Source: Squalus acanthias
Taxonomy: Eukaryota
DNA length: 64,000 nucleotides
Assembly: GCA_030390025.1 (NCBI GenBank)
Contig: CM059431.1
Span: 155,064,001 to 155,128,000, forward strand
Direction of reading: 5' to 3'
Part shown: piece by piece, positions 2,199 through 55,800 of the stretch
Layout: each line of letters begins with the position of its first letter
How positions within the stretch are numbered: the first letter of the stretch is position 1
The notes under the pieces: generated by a model
What the model saw: the letters and a program-made list of their open reading frames with translations, nothing else
The model's database searches: none
Told to the model about the DNA's origin: nothing
Program-made: the position numbers and the translations under genes

Positions 2199-2370
2199 CA
2201 TATCAGGGAGCTGACGGAAAGTAAACAGATGACCGAAGCTTCAAAATTACTTTTCGAAAAAGTGATGTCAATCGGAGCAAAAGCAGGGAGAGCAATGTGG
2301 GAAATACTTGTGAACCTGCAGAGTACGATACCAAAGCTGAGGGAAATACTGAAAGAAATGCAAGCAAAAG
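2199..2370 (+). pseudogene. NLR A exon: helical N-terminal domain (HIRELTESK...LREILKEMQAK)
   Basis: tttccag|CAT acceptor, AAG|gtatta donor, open frame; helical pattern like the N-termini of shark NLRs. Confidence 0.8.
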
Positions 2371-2895: not shown

Positions 2896-3015
2896 AGTAC
2901 CATTGCTTTTCATGTCACATAGTCATTGTGTTTTATCTTTTGAGGCATTACGCGCATGCTCATTCAAAGTGTAATGATTTTGCCGTCGACTTTATTAATT
3001 TTAATTGCTTTGCAG

Positions 3016-3319
3016 AGATTCAAAATAAACATAAAGAAACTCTCCGTCGGCAATACGACAAGATGAAAGTGAATAGTGGGGAACGGACAAGTATTTTTTC
3101 GCTTGATGATCGATACACAAAAGTAATAATCGTTAAAAGCCCTCTGGAAGGTATAACTGCAAAAGACGAACTTTGGGCCATTGGTAGAAAGCACGAAAAA
3201 TGGCAAAAGAAACATCTAACTAATTCGCTGGAGAAAGTTGGAATTGATCAATTATTCAGAAGCAGTTTCGGTCGAACGAGCCTGTCTGGAACGTCGGTAG
3301 TAACAGGTGTGGCTGGTAT
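3016..3319 (+). pseudogene. NLR A NACHT exon, 5' part, up to the first half of Walker A
   Basis: ttgcag|AG acceptor; EIQNKHKETLRRQ...LDDRYTK...VVTGVAG(I); interrupted at about 3320. Confidence 0.88.
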
Positions 3320-3442
3320 AAGAACATAAGAACATAAGAAATAGGAGCAGGAGTAGGCCAATCGGACCCTCGAGCCTGCTCCGCCATTCAATAAGATCAT
3401 GGCTGATCTGATCCTAACCGCCAATCTACTATCTATCACAGA
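3320..3442 (-). mobile_element. CR1 3'-terminal fragment (~120 bp) with (TTCTTATG)n tail
   Basis: Matches about 53373-53491 except for one substitution and one 3-nt indel. Confidence 0.9.
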
Positions 3443-5603
3443 TAGGTATCGGTATTCATCAGGAGAATGAGGCTCCGGGAATACTTCCACAAATCCCAAG
3501 ATGTCAGCAACAAACCCAATGAGACAATCAATGATCCAGAACAGCAGACAGAGGGACTCGCAGTGCAGCAACCGAAGAAAAAAGAGTCAAACTGGACCCC
3601 TCCGGAGGGTCGCTGCCTCAAGCTTGACATGTATGCTCAAGCTGTCAGGAGATGCATCAACGCCAGATTCATCAGCCGCACTCACAAGACAGTCCAGAAT
3701 GTCACCCGAGCACAACGCAACGCCATCCACGCTCTCAAGACCATCCGCAACATTGTCATCAAACCAGCGGACAAAGGAGGAGCCATCGTCATACAGAACA
3801 GAACGGACTATTGTAAAGAAGCATACCGAAAACTGGACAACCAGGAACACTACAGACAGCTACCCGCAGATCCGACCAAAGAACACAGCCGCCAACTCAA
3901 TAGACTGATCAAGACCTTCGATCCAGACATTCAAAACATCCTACGCTCTCTCATCCCACGTACTCCCCGCGTGGGAGACTTCTACTGCCTCCCAAAGATA
4001 CACAAAGCCAACACACCCGGACGTCCTATCGTATCAGGCAATGGAACCCTGTGTGAGAACCTCTCTGGATACGTCGAGGGCATTCTGAAACCCATCGTAC
4101 AGGGAACCCCCAGCTTCTGTCGCGACACTACAGACTTCTTACAGAAACTCAGCACCCACGGAACAGTTGAACCAGGAACACTCCTTGCCACGATGGACGT
4201 ATCGGCACTCTACACCAGTATCCCCCACGATGACGGCATCGCTGCAACAGCCTCAGTACTCAACATCAACAACAGCCAATCTCCAGACGCCATCCTACAA
4301 CTCATCCGCTTCATCCTTGACCACAATGTCTTCACCTTCGACAACCATTTTTTTACCCAAACACACGGAACAGCCATGGGGACCAAATTCGCACCCCAAT
4401 ACGCCAACATCTTCATGCACAAGTTCGAGCAAGACTTCTTCGCTGCACAGGACCTCCAGCCAACGCTGTACACCAGATACATCGACGACATTTTCTTCCT
4501 TTGGACCCATGGCGAAGGATCACTGAAAAGACTACACAATAACATAAAACAAGTTCCATCCCACCATCAAACTCACCATGGACTACTCCTCAGAATCGGT
4601 CTCATTCCTGGACACACGAATCTCCATCAAAGACGGACACCTCAGCACTTCACTCTACCGCAAGCCCACGGACAACGTCACGATGCTCCACTTCTCCAGC
4701 TTCCACCCTAACCATGTTAAAGAAGCCATCCCCTATGGACAAGCCCTGCAAATACACAGGATCTGCTCAGACGAGGAGTAACGCGATGGACACCTACGGA
4801 CGCTGAAAAACGCCCTCGTAAGAACGGGATATGACGCTCGACTCATCGATCGACAGTTCCGATGGGCCACAGCGAAAAATCGCATAGACCTCCTCAGAAG
4901 GCAAACACGGGACACAACCAACAGGGTACCCTACGTCGTCCAGTACTTCCCCGGAGCGGAGAAACTACGCCGTGTTCTTCGCAGCCTTCAACATGTCATC
5001 GATGACGACAAACACCTCGCTAAGGCCATCCCCACGCCTCCACTACTTGCCTTCAAACAGCCGCCTAAACTCAGAAGTACCATCGTTCGCAGCAAATTAC
5101 CCAGCTTTCAGGATAACAGCAACCACGACACCACACAACCCTGCCATGGCAAACTCTGCAAGACATGCCAGATCATCAACACAGATACCACCATCACACG
5201 TGAGGACACTACCCACCAGGTACATGGTACATACTCATGTGACTCGGCCAACGTTGTCTACCTCATACGTTGCAGGAAAGAATGCACCGCGGCATGGTAC
5301 ATCGGCGAGACCATGCAGACACTGAAACAACGTATGAACGAGCACCGCACAACAATCGCCAGGCAGGATTGTTACCTCCCAGTCGGGGAACACTTCAGCA
5401 GTCAAGGACATTCAGCCTCGGATCTGCGGGTAAGCGTTCTCCAAGGCAACCTTAGAAACACACGACAATGCAAAATCATCGAGCAGAAACTGATAGCCAA
5501 GTTCCGCACTCATGAAGACGGTCTCAACCGGGATCTTGGATTTATGTCACGATACATGACGTGATCCGGACTCGACACGTCGTTGGCTTGTTCACAGATG
5601 TGA

Positions 5604-5650
5604 TTCCCAGTAAAAAAGTAAAAATTTTCCCAGTAAAAAAGTAAAAATTT
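5604..5650 (+). repeat. Tandem duplication (~23 bp x2) in the Penelope 3' region
   Basis: ttcccagtaaaaaagtaaaaatt occurs twice in a row. Confidence 0.8.
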
Positions 5651-5894
5651 TAAAGCTTTTCGTTTTACATACAGACGGCAGCTTTTGACACGTTAGAACC
5701 CCTGCGACTACACCTCATTGTCTCAGTTGTATCTTGCTATGTCTTTGATGTGGTAACTTCCTGGCTGACTTAATTAACTTTATCACACCTCGGCAGATAG
5801 TCAGGATGATTTAATTTAGTGGTCTGCAATTGTAAGGTACACATGCTTTGTTCTCTATCTATATATGCTTTGGCGATTCTGTATCTAATTTACT

Positions 5895-5936
5895 TCACCT
5901 GAGGAAGGAGCAATCGATAGCTCCGAAAGCTTGTGA
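5895..5936 (+). ncRNA. Minimal hammerhead ribozyme motif (Penelope-associated)
   Basis: TCAC-CTGAGGA-A-GGAGC(aatcgata)GCTCC-GAAA-GCTT-GTGA: CUGANGA and GAAA boxes, 5-bp stem II, palindromic mini stem III, TCAC/GTGA stem I. Confidence 0.8.
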
Positions 5937-5985
5937 TTTCAAATAAAACTGTTGGACTATAACCTGGTGTTGTGCGACCTCTCAA

Positions 5986-7405
5986 ATCGGTAAAACTGCC
6001 ATGGTGCAGAAGATTCTCCATGACTGGGCCGCAGGCAAAATATATCAACAATTCAACTTTGTCTTTCTTTTCACATTTCGGAAATTACGAGTCATAAAAG
6101 AGAAGACAAGTCTGAAGCAGCTAGTACAAGATTCATATCGTTATTTCGGGAAGGACCTTGAGCGCGTGTGGGAAGAACCAGCGAAGATACTGCTTATATT
6201 TGACGGGTTAGATGCATTTCATGAGGATATCATTTTTAGTGATCAGCAGAGAAACGTGGACCCAGAGCATCAGTGTTTCGATCCCGAGTGTCGGTGTGAA
6301 GTGTCTGATATTGTCCGGTGTCTGGTTCAGGGGAAGTTACTGAAGGGTTGTTCGGTGTTGGTCACGAGCCGACTCAGTGCCCTGGATTCGCTGAATAAGA
6401 AAGAAGTCAATATCTGGGCTGAGATACTCGGTTTCCTTGCTGAAGAAAGAAGAAATTATTGTCGGAGATTTTTCAGGGATGCCAAGATGGCGGTCGCCGT
6501 TTTCAAATACATCGAAGAGAACGACGTCCTATACACCATGTGTTATATTCCTGTGTACTGCTGGATCATCTGTTCCACGTTGGCCCCGCTCTTTAGAGGT
6601 CAAGAGAAAAGAGAAAGGCAACTTCCTGAAACTATCACTGAACTCTTTTCAAATTTCTTGGCCAGCTTGTTAAAAAGAGAAGGTTGTAATATTATAAACA
6701 GACGTGAGCTTTTACTCAAACTCGCGGAGATGGCCTATGACGGAGTCAGCAAGAGATCCGTGATATTTCATGATGATGATTTCAAACGTCACAACCTGCA
6801 ACCTTCAAAATTCACTTCCGGGTTTATGATGCAAATTCTGCACGAAGACAACTCAGCCAGGAGTGCCGTGCACACATTTACTCATCGCACACTACAAGAG
6901 TTTCTCGCCGCTCTCTCACTGTTCCTGAAATCAACTCCACAGAAAATGGAACAGCTCCTGAATAAAGCAAACTGGGACAGTTATAGTCAGTTTGAGATAT
7001 TCTTCCGTTTCCTGGCTGGTCTTTCTTCTCCATAATCAACTCGAGAGCTAACAAAGGATTTGCGCTTGTTCGATGAATCAACATGCCACAAAGTGATAGA
7101 TTGGTTGCAAGAGGAGGTGCAGCGAATGATTGAAAAGAGTGAGGGACAGGAGAATAAAACAAAATTCTGGCCACATTCTACCTACTGTCTGAATCCCAAA
7201 ACTCAACACTGATGAAGAAATTGCTTGGATCTGTAAAGAAGGTTGCATTTTCTGATTTAGAACTCAGTCCGGTGGATTGCATGGTACTGGCGACGGTCCT
7301 GAGGCCTTGTGACGTTTTAGAAGAACTAGATCTGACCCAGTGCTCAATACAAGATGAAGGGATCCAGAGATTGGCAGGGGTTTTACACAAATGCAAAATT
7401 CTGAG
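5986..7405 (+). pseudogene. NLR A NACHT exon, 3' part (IGKTAMVQK...LHKCKILR)
   Basis: ATC GGT AAA ACT GCC ATG is in frame with ORF 6001-7035; NLR-like sequence continues past TAA 7033; frameshift near 7160 into ORF 7212; donor AG|gtaatt at 7406. Confidence 0.92.
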
Positions 7406-7699
7406 GTAATTTTAAATAAGTTACTGAAATGTACTAACGAATTCCGCGACATCTACATAAGCATGGCAGCAATTCCGTGAGAGGTCTTTCCATCGGGTGA
7501 CATGGGAAAAAAGAAAGAAAGAAAGAGATTTAATTTACATAATCGCACATTCAGGACACTGAGATAATTGTAGGGTCTTTAAAGGTCACATTACTATCTC
7601 CTGGTGGAAAATGCACCGATTTGGGCAGCTTGAACTGCCTGGCATTCGCCCTCAGGCGCTTCACTTCCTCCGAGCACATCAGCTTACAGGCTTAGTGTC

Positions 7700-9396: not shown

Positions 9397-9483
9397 GCTC
9401 AATGAGAATAAGCTGGAAGATGTGGGAGTGAAAAGGCTGTCTACAGCATTGAAGAAAAATGATTGCAAAATACAAACACTGGA
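9397..9483 (+). pseudogene. NLR A LRR exon, 87 nt (LNENKLEDVGVKRLSTALKKNDCKIQTL)
   Basis: tttag|G acceptor, GA|gtaagt donor; ribonuclease-inhibitor-type LRR. Confidence 0.88.
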
Positions 9484-9575
9484 GTAAGTGAAGCTAATTA
9501 TAGTAACTGCAATAAAAACAGAAAATGCTGGAGATACACAACAGGTCAGGCAGCATCTGTGGAGAGAGAAACAGA

Positions 9576-9610
9576 GTTAACGTTTCAGGTCGATGACCCT
9601 TCGTCAGAAC
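9576..9610 (-). ncRNA. Minimal hammerhead-like motif
   Basis: Reverse strand reads GTT-CTGACGA-AG-GGTC(atc)GACC-T-GAAA-CGTT-AAC. Confidence 0.7.
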
Positions 9611-10014
9611 TGGAAAAAGCTGAGATGGAACAGGTTTTTAAGCAAGTGTAGCGGCAGGGGAAGGGGGAGTGTTGGAAATAATTAAAGGGAAGTTCTGTGA
9701 TAGGATGGAAGGCAGGAGAGATTAAGAGAGAAAGGGGATAATGAGTTTAGATGCTGCCTGACCTGCTCAGTATTTCCAGCATTTTCTGTTCAGATGCTGC
9801 CTGACCTGCTCAGTATTTCCAGCATTTTCTGTTCAGATGCTGCCTAACCTGCTGAATATTTCCAGAATTTTCTATCTAGCATCATCCCTTTTGTCTCTGA
9901 ATCTCTTCTGCCTTCCATCCTATCACAGTCCTTCCCTTTTGTTCTTTCCTCCCCTCCCCCCTTTCCCTGCCCCTACACTTGCTTAAAAACCTGTTCAATC
10001 TCCAGCTGATTCCA

Positions 10015-10049
10015 GTTCTGACGAAGGGTCATCGGCCAGAAACGTTAAC
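10015..10049 (+). ncRNA. Minimal hammerhead-like motif
   Basis: GTT-CTGACGA-AG-GGTC(atc)GGCC-A-GAAA-CGTT-AAC. Confidence 0.65.
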
Positions 10050-10239
10050 TCTGTTCCTCTCTCCACAGATGCTGACTGACCTGCTGAGTATTTCCAGCAT
10101 TTTCAGTTTTTATTTCAGATTTCCAGCATCCACAGTATTTTGCTTTTGTATAATAACTGCAATACTGACGAATATTATATAGGAATGATGATTCGCAATT
10201 TTACAATGAAAAATAAAATACTATTGTTTCCACTTGGAG

Positions 10240-11634: not shown

Positions 11635-11826
11635 CTTAAAAGCTAACAATCTCACAAACGGTTGTATCGAAGAGCTGACATCCGCTATTATTGGAAACCA
11701 GTCAGTAATGGAGCTGGACTTGAGTAACAAAAGCAAGGGTAGTAAATGCAGGAGTAACCTAACAGACAGCTCTATTCCCGCACTGCGCCGCCTCATCCAG
11801 ATGAACCAATATCTGAGGGAAATCAG
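11635..11826 (+). pseudogene. NLR A LRR exon, 192 nt
   Basis: cacag|C acceptor; LKANNLTNGCIEEL...ELDLSN...NLTDSSIPALRRLI...LREI; AG|gttaga donor. Confidence 0.88.
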
Positions 11827-11911
11827 GTTAGATAAAAAGATATATATTAAGTAAAAGTTTTATTTATTAGTGAAATATTCACAAGGAATAACGTAAGTGT
11901 TTATTTTTTAC

Positions 11912-14210: not shown

Positions 14211-14914
14211 GCAGAAATTTATGTCGTTCAGATGAATGCTAATTACCCCGTGGTACCATCAGAATATGCTTAGGAGCGTCTGCTGATGTCTCGGCCAACA
14301 TTCCTCCCTCAATCGATAATACCACAAAACACATTAAGTGGTCACTCAACCCATTACTTCTTGGAATTAATCATAACGTTGGATCCCCATGCAGAGACAG
14401 CATCAATGCTGTCGGAAAATTACTAAACAGATCAGCACGAGCAGCATCGTCCCTAAAACTTGCGTTCAGTGCAGGACAGGTTTATAGGCTTTACCTGAAC
14501 GCAAGAGTGAGACTTAAGTACTCATGTGCATTTGCATATTTTGCACTTTTCCATAGAATTTTTTATGGTAACCCATTAAATCATGCTGAACTCTTCTCTC
14601 ACCACGCTTTGAATATTTCTTCACCACTGACAGCATGTTATGGCCACAGCTCCCCTTCCCATTAAAATACAGCCTGCTGCTCATGCCCTCCAACATTCAC
14701 AAACTGTAATCTGGGTACATCTGTTCACAATGTGAAGGTTTTTTTTTACTCTTCTACTAACTGCTTGCATTTTTTACTCATTACAGGCACACTCTTACAA
14801 AGAAAACCCACCTACCATTCTGATTTTATGCTTCTCGCCCACTTATCATGCGCTGTAGTTAAATAAACCTTTCAGAGCTGAACTCTTTAAGAAACAAAAA
14901 CTAACAAATTGTGA

Positions 14915-15165
14915 CAAAAACACAAAATGGTGGAAACACATAGCAAGTCCGGTTATATCTGTGGAGAGAGAAACAGAGTTACCGTTTCAGGTCGATGACC
15001 TTTCATCAGACTGGAAGATGTTAGCGATTAACAGGGGCTGTGCAGGAAAAGATCAAAAAGAATGAATACACTGTATAACTAACTGTGATGGGGTGTAGGG
15101 CAGACGTGATTAGATGACAAAAGTGATGCTGGTGGAGGGATAATGAGGTGATACTGAGGCAAGGG
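14915..15165 (-). mobile_element. Short Penelope-like element with a decayed hammerhead motif (about 14978-15011)
   Basis: Homologous to 9515-9740; reverse strand CTGATGA-AA-GGTC(atc)GACC-T-GAAA. Confidence 0.65.
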
Positions 15166-25865: not shown

Positions 25866-28505
25866 TATCGTTCAGCTGTTCACAATCAATTCATCTTTCA
25901 AAGCAATAAAATGCGGTTTTTCAGCTACACTGTTGTAACGAATTCAAATCCCGCTAAAATTTCGCTGTTCCAGTAAATATCACGGTAATTAGAGCGGTAG
26001 CGTTATTTCAACGATACTGAATCTGCCGTCCATTTTAAACTGCACCAGACGTTCCTTTCAATTGATTTTAACGGACAAGAAAGACAGGTGGGATGCGCCA
26101 CGGGCTGTGCTTTCGCTATGTCCCTTTTTCTCCAACCGCCCAAGACCAAGTTTGCCCCAATGATTTTATTTATTTACTGGAATAGAATAACGTCAGACGA
26201 TTTTTTAATCCATGTGAGGAATATAACTATGAAGAACATAAGAATATTACATCGCTAGAAGAGAACAGATCCACCGCCCTATTGGTCGCATGATACAAGG
26301 CTAATGGAGCAACGTGAAAATTACCGGTTGAGGAATCGATCCTTTCTTTTCCCCGTGAGGTTTTGCACTTGGCAATATGACTGCAGTTTCATACAGTTTT
26401 CCTTCTCATCAGTCATTTTACGGTTACGGAGGTCCAATATTCTCAGTGACTCGTTTGTGCGGAGTGTGCAGCAGAGTCCCTCGGTACAAGTGTCTGTGAG
26501 AACGTTGTTGCTCAGCCCGCATTACAAAGAGAAAACATGTTGGTAGTATAATAAGCAGAGATGAAAATAAAAATATAAAATACTAATGCTGCCAATCTGA
26601 AAGCAAAGCAAAAAATGTTGCAATTCCACAGTCGGTCGTTATGGGTTTTAAGTCATTTACGTAACGGGTTAAATATTGAAGTAGAACTCGGCATGGACCT
26701 GTTGGGCCGAATGGCCTGTTTATCTGCTGTAGATACTTTGTAACTCAGAACTAAATAGATGTAGTCCCTGAATTTGCGGTCTGTCTGACGGCGTACCTTC
26801 ACAGTAGGCCATCATAACCTACCCCTTTAAAAAAACTGACTGCAAATTCGGCATTTCTGCTGCGCTAAATCACAAACTTGCGATCTGGCAAGTTCCGACT
26901 GCACATTTGCTTCACAGCGTCTTTCACCTCCTCATACAAATCAATGTGATGACGAAAAGGTGGGCTTATTTCCCACCTACGGCTGAACACTTTTAAGTCT
27001 GGTGCAAACGGGCACAGGAAGCTTGTTGCACAGGGTAAGGGGACCGGACGCGAAAACTTTAATAACAAAATGATCCGTAACAAAACAATGCTATCATGGG
27101 AGATTTGTTTTCAGAGGTTATCATAATGAAGTGTTTGTAAACACACCGAATAAAGCATAAAATTAGGGATTTGTAACCATTTCTAATGAGAAGTTAACAA
27201 TCAAAGTGTAACGTAATGAGAGACTTTTATTGCCAGTATGTGTTATGAGAGGTTTTAACAAATGATATTTGTGAATTTTGAATAAACATACTTTGTTCTT
27301 TTGAAAGATGTACAATAACAGATTGTTACCATGAGAAGATTGCAGTTACTGAATTTATTATAATGGCAGCATTTCAGTGTTAGATTTTTTTACATTGCAT
27401 TATTTGTGACAATGTATTTTTACGTAACAGATAGTTTGTAATAAGGTTTCATTATGATGAGTCGTCATTACACAACCCCATCCAATCCCGCTTTCCATTG
27501 ACTTCAATGTATTTTGATCTTCACCTCCTTGGCCTCAGCATCGGCTACGCCGACTGCAAATAAGGCTTAAAGGATTCAACATTTCTGGAAGGTGCATTTT
27601 AATGCCATGCAGTAGATTTTGTGGCTATTTTTACTTTGGCCTGTGGTGCAAAATGGGCGATTTCGAAATAGCCAACTATTAAGCTCCACGCCTGATTTTC
27701 TTCTCCATTGATGTCAACGGGTACATCTGGACTTTACGCGACCGTGTTAAACGAGATTCATCCCAATGGAAATGAAATGCGGTCATGGTGTATAATGGGC
27801 AGCCGTAATTTTTTTGCCGAATATTTTACAATATCGCCCACAGTCAATATCACCCGCTGTGGAACACTGCCATGGAGAAGGATTTACAGATTTGAAGGGA
27901 CATTTGAGAAGGTAAAATGTTTTCACTGTAGCTGAAATTTTTAACGAAGTACCACTAAAATACTTTTAGGATTACAGCAAAGCAGATAGTAATCGTTTGT
28001 GGTGACTGGTCAGTAAGATGATGATGATTGGGCACAGATTTCACATAATATTAAAAACAGTCATTTGAAAAATGTATTTGCACAGATGAATTGAGAAGTT
28101 TTTCAATGGTACTGTGGTTAGACTATTTGCTTCTGTCATTGGTCTCACTCACAATGACTTTGCGAATCTCTTCCACTCATGCCCCTTTACAAGATGCATG
28201 ACGATGCTTGACCGTCTTTTTTATCACCTTGGAATGCAAGCGGCGTGGATTAAGAGTACATATAATCGGCTCATTAAGTGGAAGAACATTTCTCAACGCG
28301 CAAGGGAAATGGAACGTGTTTGTAAACGTCTTTCAGCGGCCGCCAGCTGTCCTACACAACAACTACAACAAATTGAATTCATACAGCTCCTTTAACGTAG
28401 TAAAGCTTCCCAGGGCGCTTCACCGAAGCGTTATAAAACACGATTTAACATCGAGCCACATATTAGGACAGGTGACCAAATACTTGGTCCATAAAGTAGA
28501 TCTTA

Positions 28506-34265: not shown

Positions 34266-37200
34266 ATAGAAACATAGAAACATAGAAGATAGGAGCAGGA
34301 GTAGGCCATTCTGCCCCTCGAGCCTGCTCCGCCATTCGATGAGATCATGGCTGATCATCCAAACTCTGTACCCTGCACTTGCCTTCTCCCCATATCCCTT
34401 GACACCTTTAGCTTTATGAAATATATGTAACTCATTCTTGAATATATTTAATGGCTTGGCCTCAATTACCTTCTGTGGTAGAGAATTCCACAGGTTCACC
34501 ACTCTCTGTGTGAATAAATTCTTTCTCATTTCTGTCCTAAATGGCTTACCCCTTATCCTTAGATTAAGACCCCTGGTTCTGGACTCTCCGAGCATCGGGA
34601 ACATTCTTCCTGCATCTAGTTTGTCCAGACCTGTCAGAATTTTATATGTTTCGATGAGATCCCCTCTCATTCTTATATACTCCAGCGAGTATAAGCCCTA
34701 TCGACCCAATCTCTCCTCATATTTAATTCCTGCCATCCCAGGTATCAGCCTGGTGAATCTTCGCTGAAATCCTTCCATGGCAAGAACATCCTTCCTCAGA
34801 TAAGGCGACCAAAACTGCACACAGTACTCAAGGTGTGGTCTCACCAAGGCCCTGTACAAGTGCAGCAGGACATCCCTGTTCCTATACTCAAACCCTTTCG
34901 CTATGAAGGCCAACATACCATTTGCCTTCTTCACCACCTGCTGCACCTGCATGTTTACCTTCAGCGACTGGTGCACAAGGATACCCAGGTCTCGTTGCAC
35001 TTCCCCTTCTCCCAAACTATTGCCATTCAGATAATAGTCTGCCGCTCTGTTTTTGACACCAAAGTGGATAACCTCGCATTTATCCACGTTATATTGCATC
35101 TGCCACGCTTCCGCCCACTCACCCAAACTGTCCAAATCATCCTGGAGTTTCTCGATATCCTCCTCGGAGCACACACGCCCACCCAGCTTTGTGTCATCTG
35201 CAAACATGGAGATATTACATTTAGTTCCCTTATCCAGATCATTAATGCATATTGTGAATAGCTGGGGTCCAAGGCCCGAACCCTGCGGTACCCCACTAGT
35301 CACTGCCTGCCACTCGGAAAAAGACCCATTAATTCCTACTCTCTGCTTTCTGTCCACCAACCAGTTCTCTATCCAAGTAAATACCTTGCCCCCAATCACA
35401 TATGCCTTAACTTTATACGCTAATCTCTTATGCGGGAACTTATCGAAAGCCTTTTGAAAATCCAAATACACCACATCTACTGGTTCTCCCTTATCTATTT
35501 TCCCAGTTACATCCTCCAAAAATTCCAGTAGATTAGTCAAGCACGATTTACCTTTTGTAAATCCATGTTGACTTTGTCCGATCCTGTCACTGTTTTTCAG
35601 GTGGTAAGCTATTACATCCTTTATAATGGACTCTAGCATTTTCCCCACTACCGATGTCAGGCTTACCAGTCTGTAATTTCCCGCTTTCTCTCTACCACCT
35701 TTTTTGAATAGTGGGGTAACATTAGCTACCCTCCAATCCATGGGTACAGTTCCAGATTTCATCGAATGTTGGAAGATGATCAGCAATGCATCTACTATTT
35801 CTCGGGCCACTTCCTTAAGTACCCTAGGATGTAGATTATCAGGCCCTGGGGATTTATCGGCCTTCACTCCCATCAATTTCCCTAACACCATTTCCCTGCA
35901 AATACTGATTTCTTTCAGTTCCTCCCTTTCATCAGACCCTATGTTCTCCAACATCTCTGGGAGGTTAATTGAGTCCTCCTCTGTGAAGACAGAACCAAAA
36001 TATGCATTTAATTGGTCTGCCATTTCTTTGTTCCCCATTATAACTTACCCGCTTCTGACTGCAAGGGACCTACACTTGATTTCACTAATCTTTTTCTCTT
36101 CATATATCTATAAAAGCTCTTACAGTTAGTTTTTATGTTCCCTGCAAGCTTACTTTCATCTACTATTTTCCCCTTCTTAATGAATCCCTTTGTCCTCCTT
36201 TGTTGAATCCTCAACTGCTCCCAATCCTCAGGGAAACCGCTTTTTCTGCCCAATTTATATGCCCTCCCCTTGGATCTTATGCTAACCGTAATTTCCCTTG
36301 TTAGCCACGGTTGAGTCACCCTTTTTGTTTTATTCTTATGCCATACTGGGATGAACAAATTCTGTAGTTCATCCATGCAGTCTTTGAATGTTTGCCATTG
36401 CCTATCCACCGTCAACCCTTTGAGTGACATTCCCCAATCAATCCTACCCAATTCACGCCTCATACCATCGTAGTTTCCTTTATTTAAATTCAGGACCCCA
36501 GTCTCTGATTCAACTACTTCACTCTCCATCCTAATGAAGAATTCTATCGTATTATGATCACTCTGACCCAAGGGGCCTCGTACAGCAAGATTGCTAATGA
36601 ATCCTTTCTCGTTACATAATAACCAGTCTAAGATGGCCTGATCTCTGATTGGTTCCTCGACAAATTGTTCCAGAAAACAATCCCGTAAACATTCTAGGAA
36701 TTCCTCCTCCACTGTATTTTTACTAATTTGGTTAGCCCAATCTATATGTAAATTAAAGTCACCCATGATGACTGCTGTGCCCTTACTGCATGTTTCTCTA
36801 ATTTCCATTTTAATGCCATCCCCAACCTCCGTATTACTGTTTGGAGGTCTATATTGCACTCCCATCACCTTTTCCTGCCCCTTGTTATTTCTCAGTTCTA
36901 CCCATATAGATTCCGCATCATCAGAGCTAATATCCTTCCTTTCAATTGTGTTAATCCCCTCTTTATCCAGCAATGCTACCCCACCTCCCTTTCTTTCCTG
37001 CCTATCTTTTCTAAATATTGAATACCCATGGATGTTGAGTTCCCAGCTTTGGCCACACTGGAGACATGTTTCTGTAATCCCAATCAAAACGTCTTCATTT
37101 ACGTCTATTTGCGCAGCTAATTCATCCACCTTCTTCCGAATGCTCCTTGCATTAAGACACAAAGACTTCAGGCTTGTTTTTTTACCGCTCTCAAAACTAT

Positions 37201-37905
37201 AGGAATTATTATTTACTGTGACCATGATTGATTTAAACCGTTGAGTTCTTTGCCTTCTACTTTTGTTTATCTCCTTCCTGTCTTTTGCTTTTATCCTTGT
37301 TTCCCTCTCCTCTGTCTCCCTGCTCAGGTTCCCAACACCCTGCCACTTTAGTTGAAACCCTCCCCAACAGCACTAGCAAAAACTCCCGCTAGGACATCAG
37401 TCCCGGCCCTGCCCAGGTGCAGACCGTCCGATTGTACTGGTCCCACCTCCCCCAGAACCGGTTCCAATGTCCAAGGAATTTGAATCTCTCCCCCTTGCAC
37501 CATTCCTCTAGCCACGTATTCATTTGAAATATCCTCCTATTTCTACTCTGACTAGCACGTGGCACTGGTAGCAATCCTGTGATTACTACCTTTGAGGTCA
37601 TATTTTTACATTTACCTCCTAACACCCTATATTCTGCTTTTAGGACCTCATCCCGTTTTTTACCTATATCGTTGTTGCCTATGTGAACCACGACAACTTG
37701 CTGTTCGCCATCCCCCTCCAAAATGTTCTGTAGCCGCTCCATGACGTCCTTGTCCCTTGCACCAGGGACGCAACACACCATCCTGGAGTCTCATTTGCGG
37801 CCGCAGAAACGCCTCTTTATTCCCCTTAAAATTGAGTCCCCTATCACTATAGCTCTTCCACAGTTTTTCCTCCCAGCCTGTGCAGCAGCAGAGCCACCCA
37901 TGGTG
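34266..37905 (-). mobile_element. Well-preserved CR1 LINE (ORF1 esterase part and almost intact ORF2)
   Basis: ORFs 36038-37225 (APE) and 34698-36038 (RT: YLDFQKAFD, GVPQG, FADD) separated by one frameshift; ORF1 VHIGNNDIG. Confidence 0.93.
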
Positions 37906-44465: not shown

Positions 44466-44939
44466 TCACGATATCATTGTTCAGTTCCTTGCAGAGTAAT
44501 TTCCTGGCATCAGTGAACTCTACCGCTCTACAAACTAAATTTTCAATAGTTTTATCAATATGTATCAAAAGATTATTGCAAATCAAATTATTCATGTAAA
44601 AATAATGGCAATATGCATGCCTTTGAAATTGGGACGGAATTATATCCGCCCATCTCTGGAATAACTCCTCTTCACTTGAGGATATCAACTTCGTGGAAAA
44701 ATTCTTGTCTCTGAGTCAAACCGTGCACAGTTCCATCACCAATCTCAGCGAGCTGAGAGCTGAACTCCGGCTCTGAATTCTGTGATAACATCCAACGGCA
44801 ACAGTAGAAGCATTACCGGGACTTGCTGTCATTAAAAAATGGGAGCAGTGTTTATGATCTAATGTCGTTCAATATAGTGTTCGTTCCGGAGGGTTGTGAA
44901 GTGCCTAATCAAAAGATGATGTACCATTCCGCGAGCTTC

Positions 44940-45235
44940 CGATGAGCATCATTGGCCGAGCACAATGAGGTCACCGTGGGATGGAGAATTATAATGGCAA
45001 GCCAAAAGGAAGCTCAGGGTCACGCTTGCGGAGTGAACAGAGGTGTTCAGCAAAGCGATGATTGATTCTGCACTGGTCTCCCCACTGTAGTGGAGACCAC
45101 GTCGTGAACAGCGAATACAGTATAATAAATTGAAAGAATTACTAGTATATCGCTGTCTAACCTGAATGGAGTACTTAGGTCCCTGGACAGTGGTAAGGGA
45201 GGAATGGAAAGGGCAGGTGTTGCATCTCCTGCGCT
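44940..45235 (-). mobile_element. Decayed Penelope GIY-YIG fragment
   Basis: Minus strand GET...RFAEHLCSLRKRDPELP...YNSPSH, read across frameshifts. Confidence 0.55.
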
Positions 45236-45697: not shown

Positions 45698-45889
45698 CTG
45701 GTTTCCTTGAGATTAGCTCTACTCTGGATGAGACGGCGCAATGCCGGAACGGAATAGTCAGTCAGTCTGTTGGCCCGTTCGCCATCCTGATTTTCGTTAC
45801 TCAGATCGAGCTCGATGAGTGAACCGTTTTCACGGAGGGCAGAGACCAGATTTTCCACACAATGATCTGTGAGATCGTTAGATTTTAAC
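45698..45889 (-). pseudogene. NLR B LRR exon, 192 nt
   Basis: ctgcag|G acceptor; LKSNDLTDHCVENL...PALRRLIQ; same length as the gene A exon; donor reads TTGAGT. Confidence 0.88.
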
Positions 45890-47099
45890 CTGCAGTGACC
45901 GAAAAATAAACAGAAATTATACAAGACGCTCATACATTAAAAACATCACCACTTGCTAATAATTACTGTGAAATTTCAGAAACACGGGAGAAAGCTTTTG
46001 ATATGTGCCTTTTTTTCCTGTTTCTAAATTATTTTCATCTTAATGTTAATTGAAAAGTGAGCTGCCTGATCATCATTAACACACTAATTAGAATTATTAT
46101 CGATAAAAAACTTTTCAGTTGTGCTGTTCTAATTATTAAACGTAATTACTCACTCCAATCTCGGAATGTTACCATCACTTTTATTCAGAACGGCAGAGAG
46201 CCGTTTCACTCCCGAATCTCCCAGTTTATTCTCATTGAGTCGAAACACAAATAACCAAAATCAATAATTGATAGGTAGCAATGCAACAGATAGAAAATAT
46301 TGGTAATTAAATAATGTATTTAACGTGGACACTTTGGATATCCAAGACGCGAATATAAGACCCGTAATTCAAATTCAATTTAGTTATAGCGCATGCGGTC
46401 AAATCAGTGACAATCACAAAGTGTACTTGTTTTACCGGGAAGTTACTCTAATGCCCGTGCTCATGATTTAAACATACATTATAAAATTTTTACATTTAAT
46501 GTAGTCACTGTGTGGTTAGCAGATTAAATGCTGTAAATCGTAGCCTGCAATGAAGAGGAATCCACGACATATGTCTCTCACAGGACGATTCTCTTCATTA
46601 ATTGGAGAATTTAGGGTAACATTAGAGACCGTCTCTTTGATCTTGTCTCTATTTTAGGAAAGTTATCTATCTGATGCATTGAGGTTCACAAATGCCTTTA
46701 AATCATCCCCAAGTCTATTGGAGAAACCACTGATGGGGATTGTAACAGATCGCTCGAATGTGCATCAGAGCGGGTGGAGTGATATTCCCTCTCACTTTCC
46801 TTCCCTCCGGACCTCTGATGATGCCGTGGCGCAGCAGTGCGGCTGGAGAGAGTACTCAGAATTTGAGCAATCGCAGACGCGAACCCACATCTAACTGTCT
46901 CATTTGGCAACATTGACATCAAAAACAACATTATTGATTAGGCAAATCTGATCTGATCGAGGAATTGGGAATTTTAGAAAAGTACAGTTAAAACTCGCTT
47001 ATAAATTATTCAAATTGCAAAACATAACAATGTTATTTGGTTACAGTTTAAAATAAAACAGATATTTTGTCACTGACAATGTGGAATTGGCACAAGGTT

Positions 47100-47375: not shown

Positions 47376-47736
47376 GAAATATTGTCCTTCTACCAACAGC
47401 GATGTAATATATAATGATTAAAGGGTAGGGGAATATATCTTATTGATTAATCCGGATTCTCCGGTCGTGCAAAGAGTGCGCTGGATTCCAATGTAATGTG
47501 CCAACATCCAATCTGATCTAATTAAATGAGCAGCGCAGCAATTTCAGGCATTACCCGAACAGACACTCCGGTGCCGTGTCTTACGGTTCAATTTAGCACA
47601 GCAGATAGTGGAATGAGGGAATGTGTTCATTAATTGATCGAATTGAGTTAATGTTGTTGCTTTTAACTAATATTATCCCACGTGCCAGTAAAACAGTATT
47701 TGTTGATAATGCTTTTTAACGGTTTCGGTGAATTAC

Positions 47737-49451
47737 CTGCGTATTTTACAATTGTGTAGCACGAGCTCCAACTGATGGATGCCTTCATCTTGTATCCCAC
47801 AGGTGCTGAGATTCAACTCTTCAATCACTTCAAGGGCCAATAGTGCGTTTGTCAGAACCGCACAGTCAGAAGGTATAAGAGGACACATTGTGAATTCCAT
47901 TGTCTTTATCGGTGTTAATGCTGCCTTCATCCGTTTTATGTCTCCAAATTCAAGAAAATAATGCAATATCAGTAAGAATGTCCTTTGGCTTTGCCCATCT
48001 TCCAGGTTCTGAACACGTCTTTTGACATTTTCCGTGAGCCAATGCGACACACACGGGAATGCTTGAGAAGGAATTTCCCCCAATTTTCTATCAAGCTGAT
48101 CAGTTGAATTCCGTGAGGAGACACCGACAAGAAAACGAGAAAAATATATTGAATCTCTCGTCAATGCACGTGTAGCCTTCATTGAGCAATCGTGTCACAC
48201 CATTTCCTGGTGTGCTTAGACTTTCCATAAGTGCAGCGAGAAAGTCATGCACGACGGAATGAGTGAGTGTCTAGACAACACTACACAGATGTTCATCTCG
48301 AATCTCCATCATAAACGTAGAGATAACATTGGAAAGTTCGAGTCTGTGGCGATTGATTTGCTTTTCATTAAACACAACGGTTTTTTTGCAACTCCCTTGT
48401 ACGCTAACTCGCCGAGTTTCAGCAACATGTCTTGAGCGGTTTCTGCGTCACAGCCGCATCTCTCGAAAAGGCTTGTGACATACGCGCAGAACACCTGTGT
48501 GCTGGTTGTGACGGACAATGGTCTCTCCCCCGCTCCTTGTACCCGGTGTGACTCTAATAATGAAGCGAGGAGCGAGCAGTACAGAGGATTATAGCACATG
48601 GTGTACATTGTCTCATTCTGCTCAATGTACTCGATTACATCATTCGCAAACTGTTCATCTACAAAATAACGACCGACGTATTGTTTTATTTTCTCAGAGG
48701 TGAAACCCAGAATTTCCACCGTTGGAAATAAGTGTGCCTTTCCCAGTGACTTCAGTTTCCATGTCCGGCTTGTGATCAGTACTGAACAGCCTTTCAGTAA
48801 GTGTCCCTGTATGAAGCAGCGCACGATGTCTGACACTTCACTGCAGCAGTCGGGATCGAAACATTGATATTGGGGGTCGTTGTTTCTCTGAATTTCGGTG
48901 AAATCGATAGTTAAATTTGTCTAAATAATCAAATATAAAGAATATCTTTCCGGGTCCTTTCCACAGAAGTTCCAACTCAGTTTGGAAGTCGGAGTAGGAA
49001 TCCAGGATCAGGCTAGTTAGACATGTTTTTCCTTTTATTAAATTCAATTTTCGAACCTTAAAAGGAAAGACAACTTGAATCTGTTTGTATATTTTCCCTG
49101 CAGCCCAATCATGGATTATCTTCTGTATCATGGTGCGTTTCCCAATTCCCGAGGCCCCAATTACCACGGTTGTCCCAGAACTGCCTGTTTTCGTGAAACT
49201 CAGCAATTGATTCAGGTGAATTTCTTCTCGTTCATTCTGGACGGTTTTGATCTGTAATTCTTCATGCTCTCTACCTCGGGCCTTCAGTTCATTTTCTACG
49301 AATCTCCGCTCACGCAGGGAAGCAACACGCGTTACTTTAGTTTATTTTTCATCCAGAAAAAATCTTCGAAATCTTTTTTTTCCTACAGTGGTTTTGAATG
49401 TCATCTTCACATTTTCTTTGTGGAGAGTGTCTTTGTGCTGCAGTTCTATCT
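47737..49451 (-). pseudogene. NLR B NACHT exon (5' boundary uncertain)
   Basis: EIELQHKDTL... to ...LHNCKIR; donor AG|gtaatt matches gene A. Confidence 0.9.
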
Positions 49452-49989
49452 CTTGAATATGAACAACGTCATTGGTGTAGTCCTTGTAATTCAAGAGATA
49501 AATATTTGACAGATCAGTGATATGAAGGAAAAACTAATCATCATGAAACAAAAAAACTAGAAAGATTCTGACCAATGAGTCAACCATTCATTATTTTAAA
49601 GTTTAGTGCCCAGACACTCTGAGCAAAAAAGACAATATCCGTACACATCATAAATTTCTGAAGTATAAGGACAATGCATTATAAAGCAAGCTTGAGGATT
49701 GTGGGCCGTTTGCTTTTGTATTTTCAGCTTCTGGTAATGAAGAATTCTAAATTACGAGAAATATAGCAAACGTCAATATTGGTAAATTATTGTCATTTTA
49801 TGTTCACAGGTCGATAAGGGTTATGAACGACCCCTGGTTTCGTCATGTAATAAACGATGTTTGAAGTCACGGGTCTGGCCAGCAATCGAGTTCATTCATT
49901 GTTTTCTAATCCTGAGGGTTCCGTTTGTTCTGATTCTGCTGCTCAGTGCTTTTACGGTCAGAAACGTTTTACTGACCAGCACATGAGAC

Positions 49990-53259: not shown

Positions 53260-53363
53260 CTTTACCACATGTACCGAATCTAATTCCATTCAGTGTACAA
53301 TTACAGCTAATATTTTACCAATATCTTCTTCTTCTTAGGCAGTCCCTTGGAACCGAGGATGAC

Positions 53364-55126
53364 ATAAGAACATAAGAACATAAGAAATAGGAGCAGGAGT
53401 AGGCCAATCGGCCCCTCGAGCCTGCTCCGCCATTCAATAAGATCATGGCTGATCTGATCCTAACCGCCAATCTACTATCTACTATCACAGAACCATCTCC
53501 TGCATCTAACAGAATTGCACACAAGAAATAGGAGCAGAATCAGACTACACGGTCCCTGGGCCCGCTCCACTACCCACAGGGCCATGACCGATCCGAAAGT
53601 AGACTCATGTCCAAATTCCTGCCCGCTCCCCTTAACCCGTAATGCCCTTTACTTCTAGGAAACTGTCTATTTCTGTTTTAAATTTATTTAATGATGTAGC
53701 TTCTACCGCTTTTTGTGGCGGCATATTCCATGGACCTACCACCCTCTGAGTGAAGTAGTTCCTCCTCATCTCAGTTTTGAAAGAGCAGCCCCTTATTCTA
53801 AGACTATGTCCCCTAGTTCTAGTCTCACCCGTCATCGGGAACAGCCTCCCCGCATCCACCCGATCCAACCCCTTCACAATCTTATATGTTTCAATAAGAT
53901 CGCCTCTCATTCTTCTGAACTCCAATGAGTAGAGTCCCAATCTACCCAACCTCTCCTCATACGACCACCCCCTCATCCCCGGGATTAACCGAGTGAACCT
54001 TTTTTGCACTGCCTCGAGAGCAAGGATGTCTTTCCTTAAGTAAGGACACCAAAACTGTATGCAGTATTCCAGGTGCAGTCTCACCAATACCTTGTACAAC
54101 TGAAGCAATACCTCCCTATTTTTATATTCTATCCCCCTAGCAATGAAAGCCAACATTCCATTTGCCTTCTTAATCACTTGCTGCACCTGCATACTAACCT
54201 TTTGAGTTTCGTGCACCAGGACCCCCAGATCCCTTTGCACTTCAGTGCTCTCCAGTTTCTTGCCATTAAGATAATAAATTGCTCTAGGATTTTTCCTACC
54301 AAAGTGCATCACCTCACACTTTCCAGTGTTGTATTCCATCTGCCAAATCTCTGCCCACTTACTTAGCCTGTCTATGTCCCCTTGCTGGTTTTTTATGTCC
54401 TCCTCACTCACTACTTTCCCTCCCATCTTAGTATCATCTGCAAATTTTGATATGTTACACTTGGTCCCTTCCTCCAAATCGTTAATATAGATTGTAAAGA
54501 GTTGGGGACCCAGCACTGACCCCTGTGGAATACCACTAGTTACTGATTGCTAGTCTGAGAATGAACCATTTATTCCAAATCTTTGCTTTCTGTTAGATAG
54601 CCAATCCTCTATCCATGCCAGAATATTACCCCCAATCCCGTGATTTTTTACCTTAAGCAATAATCTTTTGTGTGGCACCTTGTCAAATGCCTTTTGGAAT
54701 TCTAAATACACTACGTCCACTGGTTCCCCTTTATCCGCTCTATATATTACTTCCTCAAAGAACTCCAGCAAATTTTTCAAACATGACTTCCCCTTCGTAA
54801 AACCATGCTGACTTTGTCCTATTAAATTATGATTATCCAAATGTCCTGTTACTGTTTCCTTAATAATGGACTCCAAAATTTTACCTACCACAGATGTTAG
54901 GCTAACCGGTCTATAGTTACCAGCCTTCTGTCTACTGCCCTTTTTAAATAAGGGTGTTACATTAGCAGTTTTCCAGTCTGCCGGGACCTTAGTGGAATCC
55001 AGGGAGTTTTGAAAAAAATATTACCAATGCATCTACAATCCCTACCGCCACTTCCTTCAAGACTCTAGGATGTAAGCCATCAGGTCCAGGGGATTTATCC
55101 GCCTTGAGTCCCATTATTTTACCATT
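53364..55126 (-). mobile_element. Young 5'-truncated CR1 with ATGAC TSD
   Basis: RT frame broken by a single TAG at 54550-54552; ATGAC at 53359-53363 and 55127-55131. Confidence 0.92.
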
Positions 55127-55515
55127 ATGACTTGCTTCCACAGTAAAAATGAGTTCGCAGGTGACTGATGAGTCCAATGCGGGACCTACAGTCTCTGTCA
55201 CAGGTGGGGCAGACGGTGGTTGAAGGGGCGGCTGAGTGGGGTGCGTGGGTTGACGAGCACTCCTTACGCTGTTGGGCGCTGTACTTCCGCTTGATCCCGG
55301 CGAAGAGATTCGAGGTGTTCGACGACTTCCTGGATGCTTCTTCTCCACTTTGTACGATTTGGGGCCAGGGATTACAGGGAGCCTACTGTCAACAATGGCA
55401 GACGTCGATGACGAAATCCAACACCGCCTTCACTGTGCCAGTGCAGCCTTCGGTCGCTAGAGGAAGAGACGGTTTGAAGACTAGGACCTCAATCTCGGCA
55501 CTAAGCTCATGGTCA

Positions 55516-55800
55516 TGATTTGGCTATGATAAATTGACCCTTAGTGTTAGGGGGGGATTAAATATGTGGGGTTACGGGGATAGGATGGGATATGTTAGGG
55601 GGAATTAAATACGTGGGGTTACGGGGATAGGGTGGGATATGTGTCTGTGCAGGCTCGATGGGGATTCTGTGTGAGGAAGCAGGGATAGGGTACTGGATTT
55701 GGATGATCAGCCATGATCGTATTGAATGGTGGAGCAGGCTCGACGGGCCGAATGGCCTACTCCTGCTCCTAGTTTATATGTTTCTATGTTTCTATGTTTC
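55516..55800 (+). mobile_element. 5'-truncated V-SINE/HE1-like element with CR1-type tail
   Basis: aaattgacccttagtgt core remnant; gggccgaatggcct stem; (tttctatg)n tail. Family name from recall. Confidence 0.6.

Follow-up and report, generated by a model that had tools for sequence, protein, structure and literature searches.

In the 64,000-nt stretch of Squalus acanthias DNA analysed here (the window; NCBI GenBank assembly GCA_030390025.1, contig CM059431.1, positions 155,064,001 to 155,128,000), a gene of the NLR family (nucleotide-binding domain and leucine-rich repeat, LRR) is interrupted in its NACHT exon by two different retroelements lying head to head, a short CR1-type fragment of a long interspersed nuclear element (LINE) and a 5'-truncated Penelope-like element. 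We put the probability of two successive insertions, each by target-primed reverse transcription, at roughly 0.86. The earlier note on this DNA had taken the whole block from 3320 to 5985 for a Penelope insertion. The Walker A codons do house a Penelope-like element, but its homology begins only at 3455, and the second element had been overlooked, as had the target copy inside the block. The block and its borders contain the following features, where the sister copy is a longer CR1-type element elsewhere in the window.

3315 to 3319, plus strand: left CR1 target-site duplication GGTAT, whose final AT is also compatible with the repeat of the CR1 tail.
3320 to 3442 (3318/3320 to 3442), minus strand: 3'-terminal ~125 bp of a CR1-type LINE, extremely 5'-truncated, with the octamer tail at the left junction, identified by its match to 53364-53491.
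3443 to 3444, no strand: filler dinucleotide TA at the 5' junction of the CR1 fragment, without counterpart in the sister copy.
3445 to 3454, plus strand: internal exact copy of the empty target, GGTATCGGTA, in which the right GGTAT (3445-3449) overlaps the left ATCGGTA (3448-3454).
3455 to 5985, plus strand: Penelope-like element, 5'-truncated, with reverse transcriptase (RT; Pfam RVT_1, E 4e-09), CX4CxxC linker, GIY-YIG endonuclease and then a 3' untranslated region (UTR) ending within the pseudo-long terminal repeat (pseudo-LTR) region.
3455 to 5564, plus strand: remnant of the Penelope open reading frame (ORF), with a frameshift near 4546 and a stop at 4779-4781.
5894 to 5935, plus strand: hammerhead-like motif at the 3' end of the Penelope element, recognized by pattern only, in which a 5-bp stem separates the core words (hit at 5899).
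5986 to 5992, plus strand: right Penelope duplication ATCGGTA, an exact match to 3448-3454 and the host sequence resuming at the Ile codon.

The interrupted site can be read from its flanks. On the left, GGT GTG GCT GGT AT (3306-3319) encodes GVAG (3306-3317) and opens the next codon, and on the right ATC GGT AAA ACT from 5986 encodes IGKT, showing that the Walker A motif is truly split, as the earlier note had described. Its statement that excising 3320-5985 together with one AT restores GVAGIGKT with zero host bases lost is also borne out. The two closest homologs, P0002 from Pristis and P0003 from Heptranchias, read VTGVAGIGKT at this place and align without gaps on either side of the insert. 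Residues 293-397 of P0002 align on 3006-3320 and residues 393-790 on 5974-7167, with no residue missing. Among 120 listed homologs, GVAGIGKT makes up 28 of the 127 Walker A matches.

The bases between the two elements carry the argument for two insertions. Positions 3443-3454 read TA and then GGTATCGGTA, a sequence that is found once in the 64 kb (0.01 expected; 1 of 100 shuffles reached that), and the chance of such a copy lying within 5 bp of an element boundary is ~7e-6. The GGTAT (5 bp) and ATCGGTA (7 bp) duplications are both exact and neither can be extended. The 2-bp AT duplication or microhomology proposed in the earlier note is therefore wrong, since this AT is the overlap of two ordinary duplications of 5 and 7 bp. 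The AT occurs three times (at 3318, 3448 and 5986), which calls for a completed fill-in between the two events unless the left AT is derived from the CR1 tail; by analogy, the sister copy favours a 5-bp duplication over a tail-derived left AT. The target copy is kept between the two elements, and a target copy inside the junction is a published mark of double insertion (10.1101/158386).

The junction bases belong to neither element. A run search with 5993-7560 listed three DNA runs (X1, X2 and X3; best share 0.23), with no RNA run among the matches listed, and the three runs are from relatives rather than carriers of the allele in the window. Their CR1-family contigs leave the match to the window at 3442 (26 records of X1 and one of X3) or at 3435 (three of X2), and those of X1 and X3 continue past 3442 like the sister copy at 53364. 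Because the family continues differently after 3435-3442 in three other organisms, 3443-3454 is not CR1. On the Penelope side, homology begins at 3455, where the alignment to the protein P0123 starts, and a full-length Penelope protein has TEE before FIRR while the window reads VSV, so the junction bases are not Penelope.

The sister copy serves as an internal control for the CR1-type fragment.

53359 to 55131 (copy 53364 to 55126), minus strand: sister CR1 copy, with the 5-bp duplication ATGAC at 53359-53363 and 55127-55131.

The fragment at 3318-3442 is 97% identical to 53364-53491 over 128 columns, with one substitution and one 3-bp indel. In a Blast comparison of 3300-6000 with the window, only the first 143 bases recur, with five further matches of ~90 bases, and the places that match 3318-3442 are LINE 3' ends that carry an octamer tail. 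This octamer microsatellite, present in 2.6 units at 3318-3338, is common to the copies at 53364 and 56724. The fragment has no ORF, and two hairpins are predicted in the CR1 3' UTR (z -0.77); it could equally represent a young LINE family or a short interspersed nuclear element (SINE) sharing the same tail. The 5-bp duplication that marks insertion of this family is found in both the fragment and the sister copy, which interrupts an older repeat and shows a 2-base overlap of its tail with the duplication and ~3 filler bases before the right copy. In the fragment, the TA filler completes a 6-bp hairpin at 3429-3445 (DNA fold z -3.5; equally stable in 2 of 200 shuffles) and possibly arose by snap-back synthesis.

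The label CR1-type is taken from the octamer tail and from RT matches dominated by birds, not from a tree. The RT ORF of the sister copy (53632-54549; Pfam RVT_1) has listed matches that are mainly bird ORFs at 39-54%, none of them labelled CR1 by its source, and an APE domain is present only in a related copy at 36038-37372, which is 70% identical to the sister copy. CR1 is the main LINE of birds, and its 3' end consists of a hairpin and an octamer (PMC4316615, PMC8665684). The fragment shares with those 3' ends the severe 5' truncation and the octamer tail, with hairpins predicted in its 3' UTR, but its octamer is not the avian one given in PMC8665684, and it lacks a coding part. Beyond a short unique spacer, the sister copy also carries another, diverged version of the tail region (53519-53568, within 53364-53620), at 76% to the terminal version. 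This spacer follows as well in contigs of X1, X2 and X3, and it seems that the family has acquired a new 3' end.

The second element has the organization of a Penelope-like element with an endonuclease. RT and, at the C-terminus, a GIY-YIG domain follow each other in one ORF, both halves of which align to the single proteins P0122 and P0123, although the Pfam match to GIY-YIG (E 4e-04, 21.2 bits) lies below the cut-off of 22.6. The nearest protein is P0122 of Heptranchias perlo, at 88-91%, whose cluster in that species has 54 members. By eye, the translation contains the CCHH motif around GIY-YIG, made of two Cys in YLIRCRKEC and two downstream His, and the CX4CxxC of the linker fits the CX2-5CxxC motif between RT and endonuclease that marks the Neptune and Nematis clades (PMC8557442). 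The short target-site duplication ATCGGTA, at 7 bp, is close to the 8, 9 and 10 bp reported for Penelope elements in the rotifer Adineta (PMC3846280). The element is a single 5'-truncated unit with no second copy, and hence no tandem or inverted pseudo-LTR, within the window; the absence of the pair is expected of truncated copies and so is compatible with Penelope membership. At its 3' end, the hammerhead-like match at 5899 is one of 15 that a loose pattern finds in the window, and its stems appear in a fold that is no better than those of shuffled sequences (z -0.99), while Rfam gave no match at gathering score anywhere in the window, this motif included. Compared with the endonuclease-bearing elements of Neptune or Nematis type in the accessible text of PMC8557442, the copy has the same series of RT, linker and GIY-YIG, the 5' truncation, the short duplication and a candidate hammerhead-like 3' end. 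In contrast, it has neither a tandem pseudo-LTR nor an inverted copy of itself, since its inverted neighbour is a CR1 tail, and its target is not a microsatellite.

The earlier remark that this element carries few lesions agrees with what we found, namely one extra base near 4546 and one stop at 4779-4781 in an ORF of 2.1 kb. The extra base is private, being left out in the contigs of all three runs. Two short high-depth Penelope contigs of X2 and X3 (3508-3649) show one difference from the window in 141-142 bases, and other contigs as many as 12, while the NLR contigs of the same two runs differ by 3.5-6%. From this comparison of contigs, the Penelope family appears to be young or slowly changing across these organisms. 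We also tried to date the copy against 15 of the 54 members of the Heptranchias cluster, and discarded the attempt because the columns off the majority (10 of 172 and 37 of 336) were mostly family-level differences. In metagenome and viral contigs, the 21-base pattern of the Penelope 3' end had 0 matches, and for the endonuclease half 0 of 63 candidates were confirmed as loci in metagenome contigs. An old, decayed remnant resembling the Penelope endonuclease region is present at 44890-45230 on the minus strand (28-35% in tblastn). The Heptranchias protein P0248, named 'divergent protein kinase domain 2Ab isoform X1' in RefSeq, matches the Penelope ORF at 88% over both halves and is probably a mis-annotation or an exonised Penelope copy.

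Two successive insertions would account for the junction as follows. The CR1 enzyme would have nicked the top strand after GGTAT and primed on the octamer tail with two bases of overlap. Synthesis would have stopped after 125 bases, perhaps with a short snap-back that added TA, and a second nick five bases leftward would have produced the 5-bp duplication. The Penelope enzyme would have nicked the bottom strand before ATCGGTA and started its copy within the terminal repeat, with no target homology involved, and its second nick, seven bases rightward, would have left the 7-bp duplication. Initiation inside the RNA without target homology has been described in vitro for an anole Penelope element (PMC11167929), and in one X1 contig the Penelope family runs on with other letters after 5985. 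The later element would have landed at the earlier one's 5' junction, in the target duplicated there. The sequence comes out identical in either order, and ordering the insertions by divergence was abandoned because the CR1 piece, with one substitution and one indel, is too short. A single event with four nicks was considered as well and was rejected because of the triple AT and the intact middle target copy.

Double insertion at one site is a known kind of event. In the dimers described by McGurk and Barbash (10.1101/158386), a target copy is likewise present at the junction and the non-LTR partners are 5'-truncated. As far as the accessible text goes, theirs are head-to-tail dimers of one family in Drosophila, with inverted pairs set aside, whereas here two classes, a CR1-type element with an APE endonuclease and a Penelope-like element with GIY-YIG, meet head to head with offset and unequal duplications. 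CanSINE insertion hot spots (PMC4084570) also show independent insertions at one spot, having different but overlapping duplications and one reversed copy; the cases in the accessible part of that paper involve one SINE family in different cat lineages at intergenic loci, in contrast to two unrelated elements on one chromosome in a coding exon. A literature search for a pair of CR1 and Penelope turned up only same-family cases, most subscription journals being outside its coverage. Both families are very abundant in the relatives, with a summed contig depth (which is not a copy number) of 2e5-4e6 against 6-56 on the NLR in X1. Most simply, the co-location reflects a local hot spot, that is, target preference combined with very high copy numbers, and not a composite element.

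Several observations weigh against two separate insertions. One more insertion in the exons of the gene would land within 5 bp of the first by chance in only ~0.5% of cases, so that a hot spot or a coupling must be assumed. Neither a one-element allele nor an empty-site joint was found among the 15 of 36 joints listed, which come from contigs of the relatives X1-X3. The one hint of an empty site is contig 22 of X3, whose alignment breaks off precisely at 5986 and leaves 94 letters unplaced. Moreover, three older CR1 copies in the window gave no clear duplication at the end of homology; it is clear in one of four, only the young one. The low chance of coincidence would be relieved if the events were coupled, with the fresh 5' junction of the first element, as a nick, a flap or the 6-bp hairpin, serving within one cell lineage as substrate for an element of the other class, or with CR1 RNA replacing the inverted copy that is common at Penelope 5' ends. 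Such a coupling would suit the arrangement of the elements, which lie head to head and point their 3' ends outward, as well as the nick positions only 2 bp apart and the hairpin at the junction. A 5'-truncated neighbour in inverted orientation is frequent at Penelope insertions (PMC8557442), and the anole Penelope protein cleaves and extends both strands (PMC11167929). We nevertheless regard coupling as unlikely, because the intact internal target copy and the three ATs require a completed fill-in between the events and the CR1 piece bears the exact signature of a free-standing copy. In addition, this is one locus only, and with both families extremely abundant in the relatives some coincidences are expected genome-wide.

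The proposal of the earlier note, a single Penelope insertion from 3320 to 5985 with a 2-bp AT duplication or microhomology, would need the CR1 piece to be part of a composite donor. Its arithmetic works and AT does flank the whole block, but it leaves the 10-bp target copy inside the block unexplained, Penelope homology starts at 3455, and among the joints listed none joins 3442 to 3455 in three runs that are abundant in both families. We consider it highly improbable, and we give just as little credit to an assembly artefact that joined repeats into the exon. No read or contig was seen to span the junctions in X1-X3, as an artefact would allow; a misjoin, however, would not make two exact duplications of family length, filler bases and 3' ends that correctly face both flanks. 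Two successive insertions remain the explanation that we favour.

The interrupted gene was delineated through the following exons.

2199 to 2370, plus strand: upstream NLR coding exon, open, with AG/GT splice sites, 52% to P0002 residues 216-273; based on splice dinucleotides and translation.
3016 to 3319, plus strand: 5' part of the NACHT exon, with a FISNA-like region (Pfam FISNA E 5.5e-05, under the curated cut-off) and the first half of Walker A (GVAG and AT), 58% to P0002 293-397.
5986 to 7405, plus strand: 3' part of the NACHT exon, with IGKT, NACHT (Pfam E 5e-29), winged helix (NOD2_WH, E 4e-14), HD2 and the first LRR, 60-66% to P0002.
9397 to 9483, plus strand: LRR exon of the same NLR, open, AG/GT sites.
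11635 to 11827, plus strand: LRR exon of the same NLR, open, AG/GT sites.

The exon at 2199-2370 codes for a helical N-terminal domain, probably of death-fold or CARD-like type. The relatives of best identity are shark and ray models named 'NACHT, LRR and PYD domains-containing protein 3-like' in RefSeq, with 63% to P0002 and 62% to P0003. The gene contains a NACHT domain with the GxxGxGKT Walker A (here split), a winged helix, HD2 and LRRs. The exons outside the NACHT exon and the splice sites are intact, and the reading frame is broken by stops at 3327-3329 and 7033-7035 and a frameshift near 7160. On this reading of the sequence, the copy interrupted at Walker A is an NLR pseudogene. In cartilaginous fishes, the NLRs related to NLRPs form an expanded family that probably undergoes birth-and-death turnover (PMC8455134). 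The domains, namely FISNA-like region, NACHT, winged helix, HD2 and LRR, are the same as in that family, while the shark copy here is a pseudogene and its likeness to the family is by domains and identity, not by a tree. A second NLR paralog lies in the opposite orientation at 47700-49460 (minus strand), with a Walker A of GASGIGKR, several stops and frameshifts, and LRR exons near 46150-46250 and 45700-45890. There is a further LRR-like exon at 26339-26515 (minus strand).

We then consider whether the insertion killed the gene or landed in a dead copy, an alternative that the earlier note had raised together with the loss of the P-loop. NLRPs have GxxGxGKT as their Walker A motif, in which the lysine is important for the activity of NLRP3 (PMC9633759). 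Although the motif is indeed split, this argument is beside the point. The stop at 3327-3329 ends the reading frame three codons into the insert, and each insert alone brings a stop, within 3 or 25 codons; NACHT and the LRR part would therefore be lost wherever in the exon the insert had landed. A shortened N-terminal protein ending at 3327-3329 and acting as a decoy was considered as a possibility. The other lesions named in the earlier note, the TAA at 7033-7035 and the frameshift near 7160, are both present. The first insertion alone would truncate the protein, and these two likely accrued around or after that time. The X1 homolog of the NLR, with 54 differences in 1368 bases over 7 listed contigs (96% identical), reads TAT at 7033-7035 in 2 contigs and hence has no stop there, and an X1 contig over 7086-7430 has one base more than the window, around the frameshift, its exact place not being given. 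This suggests that the 7033 stop and the ~7160 frameshift probably arose on the branch of the window, if X1 is the ortholog. The NLR exons (2174 bp) and the Penelope ORF (2110 bp) carry two disabling lesions each; the equal density fits a death of the gene near the time of insertion, without proving the cause.

The case that the NLR copy was already dead or relaxed, and that both elements accumulated without effect, falls somewhat short of even odds in our assessment. Two insertions and two point lesions share one exon, 7 of the 10 branch-specific changes are non-synonymous, and the paralog at 47.7-49.5 kb has died by stops and frameshifts with no insertion in the aligned stretch. The family itself is expanded and probably subject to birth-and-death turnover (PMC8455134). 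What speaks against an already dead copy is that the other exons and the splice sites are intact, that the lesion density is not above that of the Penelope copy, and that the homolog in X1 is without the stop. A death close to the insertion has difficulties of its own. The lesion clock is nearly uninformative (95% interval of the rate ratio, 0.07-13), and X1 may be a paralog rather than an ortholog. Of the 34 exon differences counted in 40 of 219 rows, 22 are non-synonymous, and on the same rows the 7 of 10 on the window branch compare with a neutral expectation of 0.75 (p 0.72). These branch changes are compatible with a death near the first insertion as well as with a copy whose constraint had been relaxed some time before it or for much of the branch. 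Taken together, the evidence leans slightly to a death near the time of insertion, and we put a causal role of the insertion at just over even odds.

The loss of one NLR copy from a large family is ordinary. The locus is of use as a base-resolved case of two unrelated retroelements at one site that gives duplication lengths, 5 and 7 bp, for both shark families. It also cautions that two normal duplications may lie hidden behind what looks like a 2-bp duplication bordering a composite block. A broader and doubtful idea, drawn from one locus, is that in this genome the 5' junction of one retroelement class would be a favoured substrate for the other. Penelope-like and CR1-type elements would then insert into each other's fresh duplications, form head-to-head cross-class pairs with an internal target copy far above chance and so help to kill copies of the expanded NLR family. 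If such cross-class pairs were enriched genome-wide, integration junctions or a shared target word would attract endonucleases of different folds, with consequences for treating retroelement insertions as independent markers.

Other repeats in the window include a stack of repeat ends inside an older repeat at 55510-55800, in which a CR1 tail on the plus strand (55673-55797) has before it a duplicated segment that is rich in G and unrelated to it. An inverted-repeat element at 9505-10140 follows closely on the LRR exon; it has 43-bp direct repeats, and its arms at 9507-9622 and 10003-10118 are 91% identical. The loose pattern for the hammerhead core hits these arms and also relatives at 14907-15010 and 44370.

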